DNA from: Elusimicrobiota bacterium
GTDB lineage: Bacteria; Elusimicrobiota; Elusimicrobia; 2-02-FULL-39-32
Direction of reading: 5' to 3'
Length of the DNA stretch: 64,000 bases
NCBI GenBank assembly: GCA_016180425.1
Contig: JACPBF010000001.1
Span: forward strand, 341,381 to 405,380
A program made the position numbers. Shown one piece after another: positions 45,401 through 60,400 of the stretch (position 1 is the first letter of the stretch; each line of letters starts with the position of its first letter).

Positions 45401-48400
45401 TGGTATAGTTTTTTTTGGGAGGGAGCATATCACCGTAATATGTTCTTATTAGCCATTTTTATTTTTGCTATTAGCCACGCCTTTTGCCATCGTAAAGAAA
45501 GGATTTATTCTTTACTTTTATGTTCGCTCTTGGGAGGGGTTCTGGGATTACTTATTGGGTCACCAGCAAAACCAACTTGGTATGTAATTTTTATTTTTCC
45601 TTTCTTAAGCATACTCACAACAGCGGCTTTAAAAGATTGGTTCTCTTGTTCATTCTTCAATAAAACAGTATCTGTAGGACTCATTTCCCTGCTAATAGTT
45701 TTTTTTAGCATAGAAAGCTCTCATCGCTTTAAATTCTACAATTCACACTATTATGATTACATAAAAAAAATAAAAGCCTTCCTGCCAAATAACGCAATTA
45801 CACTTGCTACGGATAATTTATGGTTTGGGCTGAAAGATCATACTCGGTTTATCCCTCACCACTATATTGGAAATAAAGAGCGCATGGATAGCCATGGTAT
45901 GGCACAAACTTTTTACTATGGAAAATATGACGATTTTTTAAAGAGACAAAAAATTGAATACGTTATAGCGGATCAAGAGATATTGGGATGGCCTCAAAAC
46001 AAACACAATCTAATACCATTCTTAGAAAAATATGGGCATCTAGTTGCAACAATTAATGATCCTTTTTACAATTTCTCAGATTATTTATCTAAAAAAAGTC
46101 CGAGACCTCTTATTACTAGAATTTATAAAATTATTCTCAAAAAAGCGTAAAGCGAGTCAATAACTTAAATTCAGCACTTTAATTTTTACAAATATTTTTC
46201 TATAATTAAATGTTAAATAAAAAAATAATATTTTATCGTTAATGATTATAAACGAATGCCTTTCTGGAACAATTCTTCAGTACTAGTTACTGGAGCACAT
46301 GGGTTTACTGGTTCGCACTTATGCAGGGAACTGCTGAGAGCAGGAGCTAAAGTAAAAGCCTTTGTTAAAAAAAATTCTAATTTAACTAATCTCAACGATA
46401 TCATAAATAATATATCAATTTTTTATGGGGACGTCACCGATCTCAATAGTCTTGAACATGCAATGAGTGGTGTTGAATATGTCTTTAATCCTGCCGCTGT
46501 CGTGCCGGTAATGGAAGCAAGAAAATTTCCTCAAAAAACATTTGAGGTCAATAGCATCGGGCCCTTCAATACCGCGTCGGTCGCCAGTAAAATGAAAGTA
46601 AAAAAAATCCTTCACATCAGTACCTGCCACATCTATGGCAATCTTCCAGAAAGCGAACTACCAATTAAGGAATCAGCCATCCCCAAACCGGGGGACATCT
46701 ATGCCGCCTCGAAATACGCGGCGGAGATTTACTTGCGGCCACTCGTTGAGGAGGGAGCTCCCATTGTTTTCTCCCGAGCTTTTGCTAAGTACGGCCCCGG
46801 GCAAGGCCCTCACTTCTTAATTCCAAGAATCATAGATCAACTTCTTAAAGGAGAAACTCCTCAACTGGGAAGCCCAAAACCCACGAGAGACTATTCTCAT
46901 ATCGAAGACATCGTTAAAGGATATATGATGATCCTGGAAAAAGGAATCCCCGGAGAGATTTATCATCTCAGCTCTGAAAAAGAGATGAGTGTGGAAGAAG
47001 TATTTGATATGATTTCCAAGCTGTTAAACGTCAACACTAAACCCGTATGGGATCCTCGGTTAAGGCCACAAGATATTCTAAGGCTTTATGGGAATTCCTC
47101 CAAGGCGAGAAAACAACTCGGTTGGAAACCGGAAATCGATCTTAAAGATGGTTTGAAACAAACGATAGATTGGTGGAAAAAGAAAAGGGGTTCATGAATC
47201 AAAAAAAATTAACGGTGACGCTGATCGTCCCAACCATGAATGAAATTGACGGCATTCAATGGTTTATGTCTAGACTTAAAAATGAATGGTATGATGAATT
47301 GATTATTATAGACGGCGGATCAACGGACGGAACCCTTGAATACTGCAGAAAGAATGGTTACCCAATCTTTGTTCAATCAGCCAAAGGATTGACGATGGCG
47401 CAGGTTGAAGCGTTTAACCGTTCCACCAAAGATATTATCATTACCTTAAGCCCCGATGGAAACAGCATCCCCGAACTGATTCCAGTCATTGCGGAAAAAA
47501 TGCGGGAAGGGTATGACATGACGATCGCCTCTCGTTACATCGGGCCGGCAAAGAGTTATGACGACGATCGGTTTACTAAAATCGGAAATAAAATATTTAC
47601 GATGATGATGAACCTTCTTTTTGCCTCCAATTACAGCGATGTGCTTGTGATCTATAGGGCATATACCAGAGATGCGGTGATGAGAATGAGCCTGGATAAG
47701 TTGGAAGATGAAAATTGGATCAGAAAAAAATATATTCTGCTTAACAGCTGGGAGATCGCGTCCGCGGCGAGAGCAGCTCTGCTTAAACTAAAATGCGCGG
47801 AGATTCCCGGAGACGAGCCCAAAAGGATCGGGGGGAACAGGAAACTCTCCATCATCGTTCATGGAACCGCCGCATTGCTCCAAGTAATCTATGAATTTCT
47901 TCTGGCAAGATTCTATCTTAAAAAATAATTGAACGGATTAACGAGATGATCATATCAAGAACCCCATTTCGAATTTCCTTTTTTGGAGGGGGAACGGATT
48001 ACCCTGTTTGGTGCGATGAAAATGACGGCGCGGTTTTGGCGACGACAATCGATAAATACTGCTATGTCACCAGCAGATTTCTTCCGCCGTTCTTCGATCA
48101 TAAATTCAGGATCGCCTACTCGCTGATTGAGCATGTGAAAGATATCCGCCAAATCAAACATCCCTCGGTTAGAGAATGCCTTAAGTTTATGAAAATCAGC
48201 AAGGGAATTGAAATTCATCACGATGGAGATCTGCCGGCGAGAACCGGCCTGGGATCCAGTTCATCCTTTACCGTGGGTCTATTAAACAGCCTTTATGCCC
48301 TCAATGGACAACTGGTGAGCCATAAACAGCTGGCAAGAGACGCGATTTATGTTGAACAAAAATTAATTAAGGAGAACGTCGGCTGCCAAGACCAAATCTC

Positions 48401-57400: not shown

Positions 57401-60400
57401 CGCGAAAAAAAAGAGAAGGAACAAGCCGAACAATTTGTGAATCTCTTGGAAGGAGATCCGAACTATATCCCCCAAAGGCATCAGATTAAAGACGTTTGGT
57501 TTGCGATGGATTATAAAATTAACTATGAAAAATTATGGAAACTGGAAAATAAAATCAAATTAGAAATGTTACGCAAAATGTTTATCAACATGTGTGACTG
57601 TACCCACAAAGAAAATGCCTTGGGCAACCTCTATTTTAGTTTGATTGATTATAAACTTGGATTTATGGAGGATGCGAAGAGACGAATCGCGCTCGCAAAA
57701 CAATTTTCTCAAAGTTCAGAGTATTGGCATGTACGTTTCGAAACCTTAAAACTGAATCAATTGGTCTCCAATCTTGAAGAAAAAATAAAAATGGCCGAAT
57801 CCAAAACCTTTCACTAATTTAATCCCACCATCTTACTTTAAAACCCCGATTTAGTGTCGCAGATATCATAACCAAAGGGCCGAAATTGACCGAAACTCAT
57901 AATATTGATATGATAAAAACAATGAATCAAAATGAATCTATACTGACCCAATCACAAATCCAATTCTATCATGAAAATGGATATCTGATAGTTGAAAACA
58001 TTCTATCTAACCATGATTGCGACTTGGCATTAAAAATTTTTGAAGAGCATGCAAACAACAGCTATTCTGGGATCATGAATCTTGATAGGAAAGTTAAAGA
58101 AATTCGGGACATCATGAAACATCCTGAAATAGTAAATCTCTTGGAAACTCTTCAAAATGCAGAAGTGATTGGACTCCAAACCATGTTCCTCTTTAAAAGA
58201 GTAAATTCTCCCTACGCTCTCCAAGCTTGGAACCCCCACCAAGACAATGCTTACGCACAGGCGCCGTGGGGGGCATACATTACAGGAAACATCCCCTTTG
58301 CCGATCAGGATCCTGAAAATGGAGGGATGTACATCTATCCTGGCTCCCATAAAGAAGATATTCTTCCCAATGTCACTGTCAAAAGTTTTCACGAACAACC
58401 AGGAACGAATCCCGGCCATTCCGTAAAAATTCCAGAAAAATATAAAAAAGTTGATCTCTATTTAAAAAAAGGATCAATCTTAATGCTTCATGGTAACGTG
58501 ATTCATGGATCCTACCCGAACCTTTCTAAAACCAGATCGCGCCCAATGCTTTTGATTCCTTATCTTACAAAAGGCGCCAAATTCATTCCGGGGAACGTTG
58601 CTCAAAGAATGGAAATACCTTTGAGATAAAATATTTAATCCTAAAATTCCTCCTATTGAAATCAACCATGTATTATAAAGGAAAAAATGTGTTAGTTGCC
58701 GGCGGTTCCGGGATGACAGGACAAAGCCTCATCCGAAAACTCATAAACCAAGGTGCATCAGTAAGAGCAACCCAATATAAGTCCCGCAAAATAATTCTCA
58801 CCCATAAAAATTTGGAAGTCATTTCTTGTGATCTAAAAAATGATGAAGAAGCTCAATCAATTTTTAAAGATATGGATATGGTTTTTCTTTGTGCCGCGAA
58901 GGTAGGCGGAGCGAAATTAATTAAAGAAGACCCCTCCAGTTTGATTATTTACAATTTAGACCTACACGCAAAATTAATGTATCTTGCGTCAAAGATGAAA
59001 CTGGAAAAATGCGCGTTCATCAGTTCCAGCTACGTTTACCCGGATACCGGCAAGCCAAATGTGGAAAGCGAAGGGTTTAAAGACGACCCTTGGATTCCTT
59101 TAAATTACGGCCTGGGTTGGATTAAACGTTACTTAGAAACGTTATGCAAACATTTTCATATGACCAGCCAAACTAAATATGCGATTATACGCCCCGCAAA
59201 TATTTTTGGTCCATATGATAACTTTAACATCGATGAATGCCATGTAGTTCCAGCTCTCATAGTAAAGGCGGTTGATCAAATGAACCCTTTTGAAGTTTGG
59301 GGAAACGGTGAAGATATCCGCTGTTTTACTTATGTGGACGATCTGGTGGACGGGCTGATGTTAACCGTTGAAAAATACGCAGTGGCTGAAGCTTTAAATA
59401 TCTGTCCAAAAGAAAGTCATACCATTAAAGACGTCATAAAACATATTCTTGATCTCCTTAACTTTAATCCTAAAATCATTTTTAATTCCAATAAACCGTC
59501 ACTCATTCCGTATAAAGTATCCGACCCCGGCAAAGCCCTTGAAATCTTAGGATGGGAAGCGAAGATCAGTTTAAGGGAAGGATTAAAACAAACGATCGAT
59601 TGGTACATTAAAAACAGAAAAACTCAAGCGTATGCAGCAAGATAAATTATCTCTAGGAGCTGTAAAAGTTAAAAAGGTTTTTGAAACCGAATGGTTTTCG
59701 ATTGATGCGATTTCACAAAAAAAATCGCACCGGCCGTATTACCGACTTTCCTGCAACGATTCCGTTGTGATTGTGGCTCTTACAGAAGATCATAAATTAA
59801 TTCTGATTCGTCAATATAGGCCTGCCATCGGAACTTCAATGCTGGAATTCCCCGCTGGTCAGATAGATTTGGGAGAAACTCCGGAGGTTTCCATCAAAAG
59901 AGAACTAGAAGAAGAAACGGGGTATAGATGCGGTTCATTATCATATGTGGGACCCTACCGGGTTGACCCTTGTAGAATTAACAGCATGGTTCATCTATTT
60001 TTTGGAAAAGATGCAAAGTTAACTGGCAAAAAACAAATAGAAGATGAGATTGAAGAAGTAATCACAATCTCTGAAGAAGAGTTCAAAGAGATGATAAAGG
60101 ATAGAAAATTTATTGCAGCATCCGGTGTGGGTTTCTATAGTTTAGCCAAACTTAAAGGATTATTTTAAATGATATTCCAATGCTAAAAATCGGATTTATT
60201 TTCCCCAGTAGCGAATACCTGCACGACCCCTTTCGTGGTGATCCTCATACTCATTTTCAAATTTTGACTATTTTAGAGGATTATTTCGGGCCTAAGGTTG
60301 AACTATCCCTTATTGACTTGCGCGGTATCAAGAAAGAATTTGCATTTTATCATATTCCAGAATGTGATGTGTATCTACATTCCGTTTATACTCTCGATTA

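Follow-up and report, generated by a model that had tools for sequence, protein, structure and literature searches.

A GC-rich tract within a putative sugar-tailoring cassette of an Elusimicrobiota bacterium

Envelope-glycan gene clusters are classic targets of lateral exchange, surface-polysaccharide gene clusters are typically of atypical GC content, and the classic enterobacterial O-antigen clusters are AT-richer than their hosts. Here, we examine a comparable locus in a 64,000-nucleotide stretch of an uncultured Elusimicrobiota bacterium from groundwater (assembly GCA_016180425.1, contig JACPBF010000001.1, positions 341,381 to 405,380), referred to below as the window and numbered from its first nucleotide. 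It carries a GC-rich tract (46546–57697) inside a single putative sugar-tailoring cassette of at least 17 kb, reaching from 46.2 kb to beyond 64 kb. As in the exchange of O-antigen, capsule and lipopolysaccharide (LPS)-modification clusters, consecutive glycan-tailoring genes have a non-host composition, no integrase or tRNA gene accompanies them and one junction falls inside a conserved cluster gene. Unlike the enterobacterial O-antigen clusters, the block is GC-richer than its host and comprises only part of one cassette.

The E1 alpha/beta-like gene pair of the cassette has its closest described counterparts in antibiotic biosynthesis, where the pyruvate dehydrogenase (PDH)-E1-like pairs AviB1/B2 (avilamycin) and Pau11/12 (paulomycin) place a two-carbon branch onto a keto-sugar (PMC4425429). 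The likeness is one of gene context: here too, a split E1 pair without E2 or E3 lies among NDP-sugar short-chain dehydrogenase/reductase (SDR) genes, an aminotransferase and glycosyltransferases. Unlike AviB1/B2, the pair is tightly linked to cupin, DJ-1 and GHMP kinase genes, and it is found among envelope-glycan genes of uncultured bacteria, archaea and phages rather than in actinomycete antibiotic clusters. Searches of the literature on this gene combination and on related branched-sugar and radical SAM sugar pathways found no account of the cassette, which does not prove that none exists.

The tract is best read as one uniform piece of DNA that has spent less time in the AT-rich genome than its neighbours. 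Judged jointly, its origin by replacement within the cassette and the function proposed below form an explanation that we regard as slightly likelier to be right than wrong.

Composition and edges of the tract

Ten consecutive plus-strand genes (46256–57817) show elevated GC content at third codon positions (GC3), with values of 0.41–0.50 per gene and a mean of 0.458, against a mean of 0.325 (sd 0.032, maximum 0.406) in the remaining 50 open reading frames (ORFs) of the window (Mann–Whitney p = 7e-7). The top ten GC3 ranks among the 60 ORFs belong to precisely these ten genes (P about 7e-10). A two-boundary likelihood scan run on the third-position GC series placed the maximum-likelihood edges of the tract, which as a compositional feature has no strand, at 46546 and 57697, with GC3 of 0.463 inside and 0.331 outside and a log-likelihood ratio of 63 for the boundary pair, compared with at most 13.4 in shuffles. 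Together, the likelihood ratio and the consecutive ranks bear out the initial annotation, made by reading the sequence, which had placed a discrete, foreign-looking block at 46400–57820. A uniform GC or GC3 profile, named there as the contrary outcome, was not seen, and both the GC3 and the tetranucleotide shift were confirmed. Chance or noise as the cause of the shift was ruled out by the shuffles and rank statistics.

The compositional shift is thus real; it is also modest in size. GC content is 43.3% at 46400–57820 and 37.2% in the remainder (38.3% in the whole window), instead of the roughly 50% versus 32% first estimated. The 60-nt blocks at 47.4, 50.0 and 52.5 kb, quoted as 48–52% GC, measure 45.0, 46.7 and 45.0%, and the background, put at 30–35%, is about 37%; a block of the same length at 20.0 kb has 26.7% GC, and the highest 500-nt window reaches 51.2% at 50501–51000. 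As a calibration, GC estimates made by eye were therefore about 5–7 points too extreme at both ends. Third positions had been described as switching from A/T-heavy to G/C-heavy: the rise is there, with GC3 moving from 0.32 to 0.46, but the third positions of the tract keep an A/T majority. Compositional islands are routine, and a shift of six GC points is a modest and ordinary event for clusters of this kind.

Inside and outside the tract, GC1, GC2 and amino-acid usage are nearly equal, whereas GC at four-fold degenerate sites (GC4) is 0.53 and 0.38, respectively; the shift is therefore a synonymous-site effect, and an amino-acid-driven one is ruled out. It consists mainly of NNT codons giving way to NNC, plus more NCG, with GAA, CAA and AAA retained. 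Within the boundaries GC3 is homogeneous (dispersion 1.13, p = 0.22), which rules out a patchy mosaic. Tetranucleotide usage moves as well: the z-scores of the tract correlate with those of the remaining sequence at 0.43, native 11.5-kb chunks at 0.55–0.66, and the L1 distance is 0.273 for the tract versus at most 0.154 for native chunks. The native baseline is sound because the first 44 kb hold ordinary housekeeping genes at 36–40% GC, among them those for ThiC, NadA, IspH, the CCA-adding enzyme, OTCase, HisG and BipA. Beyond the right edge, the tail of the cassette (57.9 kb onward) is slightly raised in GC3 (0.353 vs 0.321, p = 0.011), with a tetranucleotide L1 distance of 0.220 against a native maximum of 0.214.

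Both edges fall in the genes where the initial annotation had set them. The left edge (46546, support 46429–46573) lies 96 codons into the SDR gene that opens the cassette at 46256 (SDR1), and the right edge (57697, support 57406–57906) lies at the 3' end of the gene ending at 57817, which encodes a B12-binding radical SAM protein (B12 radical SAM B). GC3 is 0.28 over the initial 96 codons of SDR1 (P = 2e-4 under the island rate) and 0.47 thereafter. An edge inside a gene points to recombination rather than insertion.

Of the features of a classical integrative island, the locus displays the atypical composition, whereas neither an integrase/tRNA pairing nor att repeats were seen. No integrase or transposase Pfam domain occurs in 41.8–64 kb, and no tRNA gene lies near the tract, the only two of the window by Rfam scan being at 14828 and 16540. 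The same scan returned no riboswitch in the window, its matches being those two tRNAs only; no enrichment of terminators or promoters was found at the tract. Att-like flanking direct repeats were not found at the tract ends beyond a chance-level pair. That pair is an imperfect 25-nt direct repeat (20/25 identical, 80%) at 46229–46253 and 57632–57656, one copy just before SDR1 and the other within the 3' end of the radical SAM B gene; as one of 41 similar families in 17 kb, it is probably a chance-level match.

A cassette shared across lineages and viral contigs

All genes of the cluster lie on the plus strand, and those of the block had been read correctly by the initial annotation: an SDR, a GT2 glycosyltransferase, a GHMP kinase, a cupin, E1 alpha and beta, two B12 radical SAM proteins, an Fcl-like SDR and a HemN-like protein. 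SDR1 (46256–47197) resembles NDP-sugar 4,6-dehydratases (LegB/RmlB-like) at scores below curated cut-offs. It is followed by a GT2 protein similar to polyprenyl/dolichyl-phosphate hexose transferases (AglJ, DPM-like and ArnC-like; 47170–47928, gene-caller start 47194) and by a GHMP sugar kinase (47946–48941) whose nearest curated and solved relatives are the heptose-7-phosphate (anomeric) kinases HddA and WcbL. The cupin protein (48974–49666) has invariant His47, His49 and His88, and sequence and profile searches of the PDB with it returned generic cupins only. Next come the thiamine pyrophosphate (TPP)-dependent E1 alpha-like protein (49667–50554; Pfam match E1_dh, locus tag HYT97_01710) and the E1 beta-like protein (Transket_pyr plus Transketolase_C; 50518–51471, gene-caller start 50527). 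B12-binding radical SAM A (51521–53485; 654 aa, resembling KedN5-type C-methyltransferases), the Fcl-like SDR epimerase/reductase Epim2 (53482–54471), a HemN-type radical SAM protein (54520–55965) and B12-binding radical SAM B (55970–57817; 615 aa) complete the series, the last being the final gene of the GC-rich tract.

Functionally related genes continue to the window end, as the initial annotation had stated. The near-native tail opens with a PhyH-family iron/2-oxoglutarate (Fe/2OG) dioxygenase (57886–58629) and proceeds through a second Fcl-like SDR, Epim3 (58656–59645), a NUDIX hydrolase (59632–60168), B12-type radical SAM C (60180–61517; 445 aa), a DJ-1/PfpI protein (61673–62191), which elsewhere is almost always encoded directly upstream of cupin-E1a-E1b, and a DegT-family sugar aminotransferase (62227–63396). 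A further SDR epimerase/reductase (63393–64000) runs off the window end, so the cluster extends past 64 kb.

Almost all cluster proteins miss the curated equivalog cut-offs (Gmd, Fcl, HddA, PDH E1, KedN5 and ArnC), and the gene names used here consequently denote resemblance only. The initial annotation had spoken of a GDP-sugar operon; with a Gmd score of 69 against a cut-off of 415 and Fcl scores of 156 and 159 against 500, the GDP carrier is not established. The Pfam domains of E1 alpha and E1 beta score above gathering thresholds, and the PDH-type E1 equivalog scores are 114 vs 394 bits for E1 alpha and 68 vs 321 for E1 beta. No lipoyl-E2 or E3 gene occurs in the cluster within the window, nor did any turn up when related cellular and viral loci were compared with the cluster proteins and flanking ORFs were scanned. 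The proteins encoded at 51521 and 55970 pass the Pfam cut-offs for both the B12-binding and the radical SAM core domains; in that at 60180 the B12 domain is sub-threshold (22.5 vs 32.1 bits). Scores against the characterised class B subfamilies fall short of their cut-offs (KedN5 274/700, PhpK 166/575 and Sden_1168 115/600 bits). The HemN-type protein, at 413.8 bits, exceeds the TIGR00538 cut-off of 324.95, and its orthologues lie inside the same cassette in loci L008, L037 and L038 and in viral contigs L061 and L067. Neither a haem role nor a haem context was found for this gene; its product is more likely a class C radical SAM tailoring enzyme, and probably one that annotation pipelines label HemN while it acts in tailoring.

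An E1 alpha-like profile was searched in species-representative genomes, and metagenome contigs with the closest homologues were added. The search of species representatives gave 31 loci. These were distributed among Chloroflexota, Planctomycetia, Omnitrophota, Acidobacteriota/Terriglobia, Elusimicrobiota, Nitrospira, Bdellovibrionales, Gemmatimonadaceae, Ilumatobacteraceae, three lineages of the candidate phyla radiation (CPR), one Woesearchaeota archaeon and one betaproteobacterium. The E1 subunits are 46–79% identical from archaea to bacteria. Orthologues of the tail genes are interleaved with those of the tract genes in L038, L039, L008, L037 and L041, and gene order is shuffled between genomes. 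It reads DJ-1-cupin-rSAM_C-E1a-E1b-rSAM_A-Epim2-PhyH-NUDIX in L039, rSAM_A-Epim2-rSAM_C-PhyH in L041 and cupin-E1a-E1b-rSAM_A-Epim2-HemN-rSAM_B-x-NUDIX-rSAM_C-SDR in L038 (rSAM, radical SAM), the last retaining the order of the window across the right boundary. This interleaving contradicts the earlier proposal that the block was grafted onto a separate resident operon: the neighbours of native composition are themselves part of that mobile cassette.

The gene set varies, and a second E1 pair, additional aminotransferases and more B12 radical SAM genes are found in some versions. At L008 (1775–4997) and L006 (11811–13583), the conserved divergent pair is supplemented by another E1 alpha/beta pair that is more canonical (E1_dh 137 bits). 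Up to four radical SAM enzymes accompany the DJ-1-cupin-E1alpha-E1beta core. In a neighbour-joining tree of E1a plus E1b, Nitrospira, CPR, Terriglobia and most Omnitrophota form clades of their own, with a few clear exceptions, among them an Acidobacteriota sequence nested in Omnitrophota at 91%. By this tree the cassette is largely lineage-coherent with occasional transfers, and at a large evolutionary scale it is laterally mobile. We regard the cassette as a more valuable lead than the island: it is uncharacterised, unusually widespread, highly conserved and radical-SAM-rich, occurs in candidate phyla and on phage contigs, could specify an unknown envelope sugar of many uncultured groundwater and marine microbes, and offers new radical SAM and TPP enzymes that modify sugars.

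The E1a profile also retrieved 44 predicted viral contigs from IMG/VR (L045–L088) of 9–186 kb and 29–45% GC. On these, DJ-1-cupin-E1a-E1b keeps its gene order and precedes DegT and SDR genes; some contigs add genes for radical SAM A, B and C (64% identity for C) and the HemN-type gene. Their flanks encode mostly glycosyltransferases, together with a UvsX-like recombinase, exonucleases, a primase/helicase and a helicase. In L087 (612–1919 and 8380–11600) and L088, the helicase lies 8 kb upstream; PHROG matches to UvsX-like, exonuclease and primase proteins are in other flanks. The best PDB matches of the viral helicase are 8due, 8dtp and 8g0z (‘DnaB-like replicative helicase’; E = 7e-46 vs 3e-8 for bacterial DnaB), structures that we take to be of the phage T4 gp41 helicase. 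Among GenBank phages, no E1a homologue above 30% identity was found.

A similar arrangement has been described in T4-like pelagimyophages, which carry LPS/glycosyltransferase and radical SAM cassettes in a hypervariable host-recognition cluster (PMC7029224). The viral contigs likewise have glycosyltransferase and, in some, radical SAM genes beside T4-type replication genes; they differ in their E1/transketolase-type genes, which that description does not mention. Phages are a plausible vehicle for the cassette. The viral E1a proteins, at 42–52% identity to that of the window, are too distant for the phage copies to have been the donor here.

Origin of the tract

GC3 is host-like in the orthologous cassettes of other AT-rich hosts (Woesearchaeota L034, Nitrospiraceae L020 and contig L036), so these genes have no intrinsic GC3 bias; on the same ground, a bias intrinsic to the families is ruled out and one linked to expression is disfavoured. 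Elsewhere, the cluster deviates from its host in either direction. In L033 (2231–17013; Ilumatobacteraceae metagenome-assembled genome (MAG) DAIODP010000001.1) it forms an island of opposite sign, with GC3 of 0.36–0.47 within flanks of 0.61–0.65, and in Daviesbacteria L029 its GC3 is 0.31–0.36 vs 0.21–0.28. From these deviations it follows that the cassette moves between genomes of differing GC.

The codon usage of the tract is nearer to that of L011, a MAG of 48% GC, than to that of its own host (L1 distance 3.66 vs 5.34). L014, a contig from a GC-richer member of the Elusimicrobiota, shares most of the codon pattern (GAA 0.71, AAA 0.70, ATC 0.55), with a lower usage of CAA (0.42 vs 0.76), and is the best named relative of SDR1, the GHMP kinase and radical SAM A. 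Nearest to the window in the E1a plus E1b tree is L036, at 96% bootstrap support, with L014 joining next (54%). The source was probably a GC-richer Elusimicrobiota-like relative and not a member of a distant phylum. The donor search proposed by the initial annotation yielded no lineage that could be named, the best non-self matches being 64–79% identical.

Read from composition and not from phylogeny, the most likely course is homologous (allelic) replacement, in which the stretch between the middle of SDR1 and the end of the B12 radical SAM B gene would have been replaced by its counterpart from a GC-richer form of this cassette. Replacement is preferred to site-specific insertion because the left junction is intragenic, the composition is uniform and integrase, tRNA, repeats and transposase are all missing; integrase-mediated insertion is less likely. 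The left edge lies within SDR1, a gene that both versions would have shared. The slightly raised GC3 of the tail is consistent with an earlier layer of the cassette that has largely ameliorated.

Several observations weigh against this explanation. L036, the nearest relative, is 74–79% identical for the GHMP kinase, cupin, E1a and E1b of the tract, the last three at 78–79%, and 79% for DJ-1 of the tail. L041 gives 69 and 72% for B12 radical SAM A and Epim2 in the tract and 69 and 70% for B12 radical SAM C and PhyH in the tail. Because the nearest of the sparsely sampled relatives are the same and equally distant, protein phylogeny does not split tract from tail, and the evidence for a foreign origin is therefore compositional. 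A comparison of the 96 N-terminal residues of SDR1 with the rest across 57 homologues found no discontinuity and the same best relatives, and the right boundary is fixed only to about 500 nt. The best non-self matches reach 79% for E1a, 74% for PhyH and 73% for SDR1; with the closest relatives at 79% for the tract and 74% for the tail, no donor, empty site or replaced AT-rich allele is shown. As to function, a nucleotidyltransferase gene is absent from the part of the cluster in the window, and the scheme given below is inferred from domain-level similarity. What survives of the initial annotation's horizontally acquired mosaic is that a mosaic origin is the best explanation; a phylogenetic separation of the two halves was not recovered.

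The same equidistance of tract and tail genes from their relatives could arise if the whole cassette, from 46.2 kb to beyond 64 kb, had been imported once, either already mosaic in the donor or GC-rich throughout with the tail later replaced by an AT-rich allele. The tract would then not be younger than the tail, and only the order of events would differ. The marginally atypical tail, in GC3 and in L1 distance, and the shuffling of gene order between genomes also suit such an import. It calls for an extra unobserved step, however, and the left boundary falls inside a cassette gene instead of at the cassette edge; since the first 96 codons of SDR1 are native-like, an AT-equilibrated copy of SDR1 was presumably already present. 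We consider this course unlikely. More improbable still is that no transfer took place and that GC3 was raised by codon selection (high expression with a preference for C-ending codons) or GC-biased gene conversion. The change from NNT to NNC with more NCG and unchanged GAA, CAA and AAA looks superficially like translational selection, and surface-glycan loci are recombination hot spots. Yet GC3 is not raised in the orthologues of other AT-rich hosts, the left boundary splits one gene, and adjacent genes of the same apparent operon, from PhyH onward, lack the bias. Gene conversion should also raise G-ending two-fold codons, which are unchanged; the C-ending, GAA-retaining pattern is the codon usage of the GC-richer L014, and tetranucleotide usage differs as well.

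An assembly chimera, in which the cassettes of two organisms were joined in one contig, has to be weighed as the source is a metagenome-assembled genome and homologous cassettes occur in many co-occurring groundwater lineages. Assembly chimerism had been named as a check by the initial annotation. A 20.8-kb Logan contig from run SRR12113425 (3 samples), built with a different assembler, is 100% identical to the window over 44496–60554 and crosses both junctions, and three further runs yield identical Logan sub-contigs. Because this independent assembly reproduces both junctions exactly, and because no other sampled cassette exceeds 79% identity, leaving no shared k-mers on which to mis-join, a chimera is very improbable.

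Predicted pathway and neighbouring genes

The tract is one segment of a longer putative biosynthetic cassette, whose product can be sketched from domain content. The GHMP kinase, with a nucleotidyltransferase or NUDIX step, would activate a sugar that the SDRs, the cupin, the DegT aminotransferase and the PhyH dioxygenase would tailor. The E2-less, TPP-dependent E1 alpha/beta pair would transfer a two-carbon unit, with chain extension and two-carbon branching equally possible, and the three B12-type radical SAM enzymes and the HemN-type enzyme would alkylate unactivated carbons. GT2 would load the product onto polyprenyl phosphate, and the GT-C glycosyltransferase encoded at 44543 would transfer it to an envelope acceptor. 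Carried further, and here we are tentative to the point of doubt, the cassette may represent an undescribed pathway to a multiply C-alkylated, two-carbon-branched or chain-extended sugar common to Elusimicrobiota, Omnitrophota, Nitrospira, Acidobacteriota, Planctomycetia, CPR bacteria, DPANN archaea and T4-like phages, with the tract as a snapshot of its exchange.

For the activation steps, the nearest described systems are the GDP-heptose capsule pathways of Campylobacter and Burkholderia (HddA/WcbL, GmhB and HddC). The kinase is closest to heptose-7-phosphate kinases, an NTP-transferase (L037) and a HAD phosphatase (L039) adjoin it in related cassettes, and several Fcl-like SDRs and a cupin correspond to the SDR and cupin tailoring of those pathways. 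By analogy, the related cassettes parallel the kinase-phosphatase-nucleotidyltransferase logic of heptose activation. Points of difference are scores below the cut-offs for HddA, Gmd and Fcl, the failure to find a GmhA-type isomerase, and E1 alpha/beta and radical SAM enzymes to which nothing corresponds in those pathways.

The delivery steps may resemble the ArnC/ArnT and GtrB/GtrC relays: the gene for a small GT2 similar to polyprenyl-phosphate hexose transferases lies close to one for a GT-C (PMT_2) transferase. The GT-C gene (44543–46150, plus strand; 535 aa, PMT_2/GT_STM0557_N-like; 31.7% GC, GC3 0.265) adjoins the tract on the left and ranks with the AT-richest ORFs in the window. The best curated scores of the GT2 protein at 47170 are 95 vs 325 for AglJ and 37 vs 529 for ArnC. 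In contrast to those relays, it is short (244–252 aa) and far below the ArnC cut-off, and no polyprenyl-phosphate sugar flippase (GtrA/ArnE-type) was recognised in the cluster. The locus further departs from ArnC/ArnT relays in that no homologue of the GT-C protein was detected next to the cassette at any of the other loci. No close relative of it was found in JGI metagenome contigs, and it may be a separately acquired, host-specific module.

Two other loci of native composition in the window encode similar pairs. A complete Arn-like operon (aminoarabinose-type lipid A modification; 22208–29634) lies 20 kb upstream and comprises, in order, genes for DegT/ArnB, GT2/ArnC, a 735-aa fusion of PAP2 phosphatase and GT-C (ArnT-like), a formyltransferase, an SDR decarboxylase-like protein and a deacetylase; its SDR gene at 27663 reaches a GC3 of 0.406, the maximum outside the tract. 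At 30979–32948 lies another pair of GT-C (PMT_2) and GT2 genes. There are thus three GT-C/GT2 pairs within 25 kb of the window, and by analogy the other pairs support the suggestion that the proteins encoded at 47170 and 44543 would deliver the product via polyprenyl phosphate.

Further upstream, the window contains two tRNA-Gly genes (GCC and CCC) at 14828–14898 and 16540–16610. The first overlaps the 5' end of an M23 peptidase ORF (14842–15801), the true start of which must therefore lie further downstream. On the minus strand, three consecutive ORFs at 9962–13927 have no or minimal Pfam matches, one of them with a type IV pilin-like N-terminal methylation motif; those at 9962–11218 and 12071–13927 have a GC2 of 0.44–0.49, unusually high compared with their neighbours.

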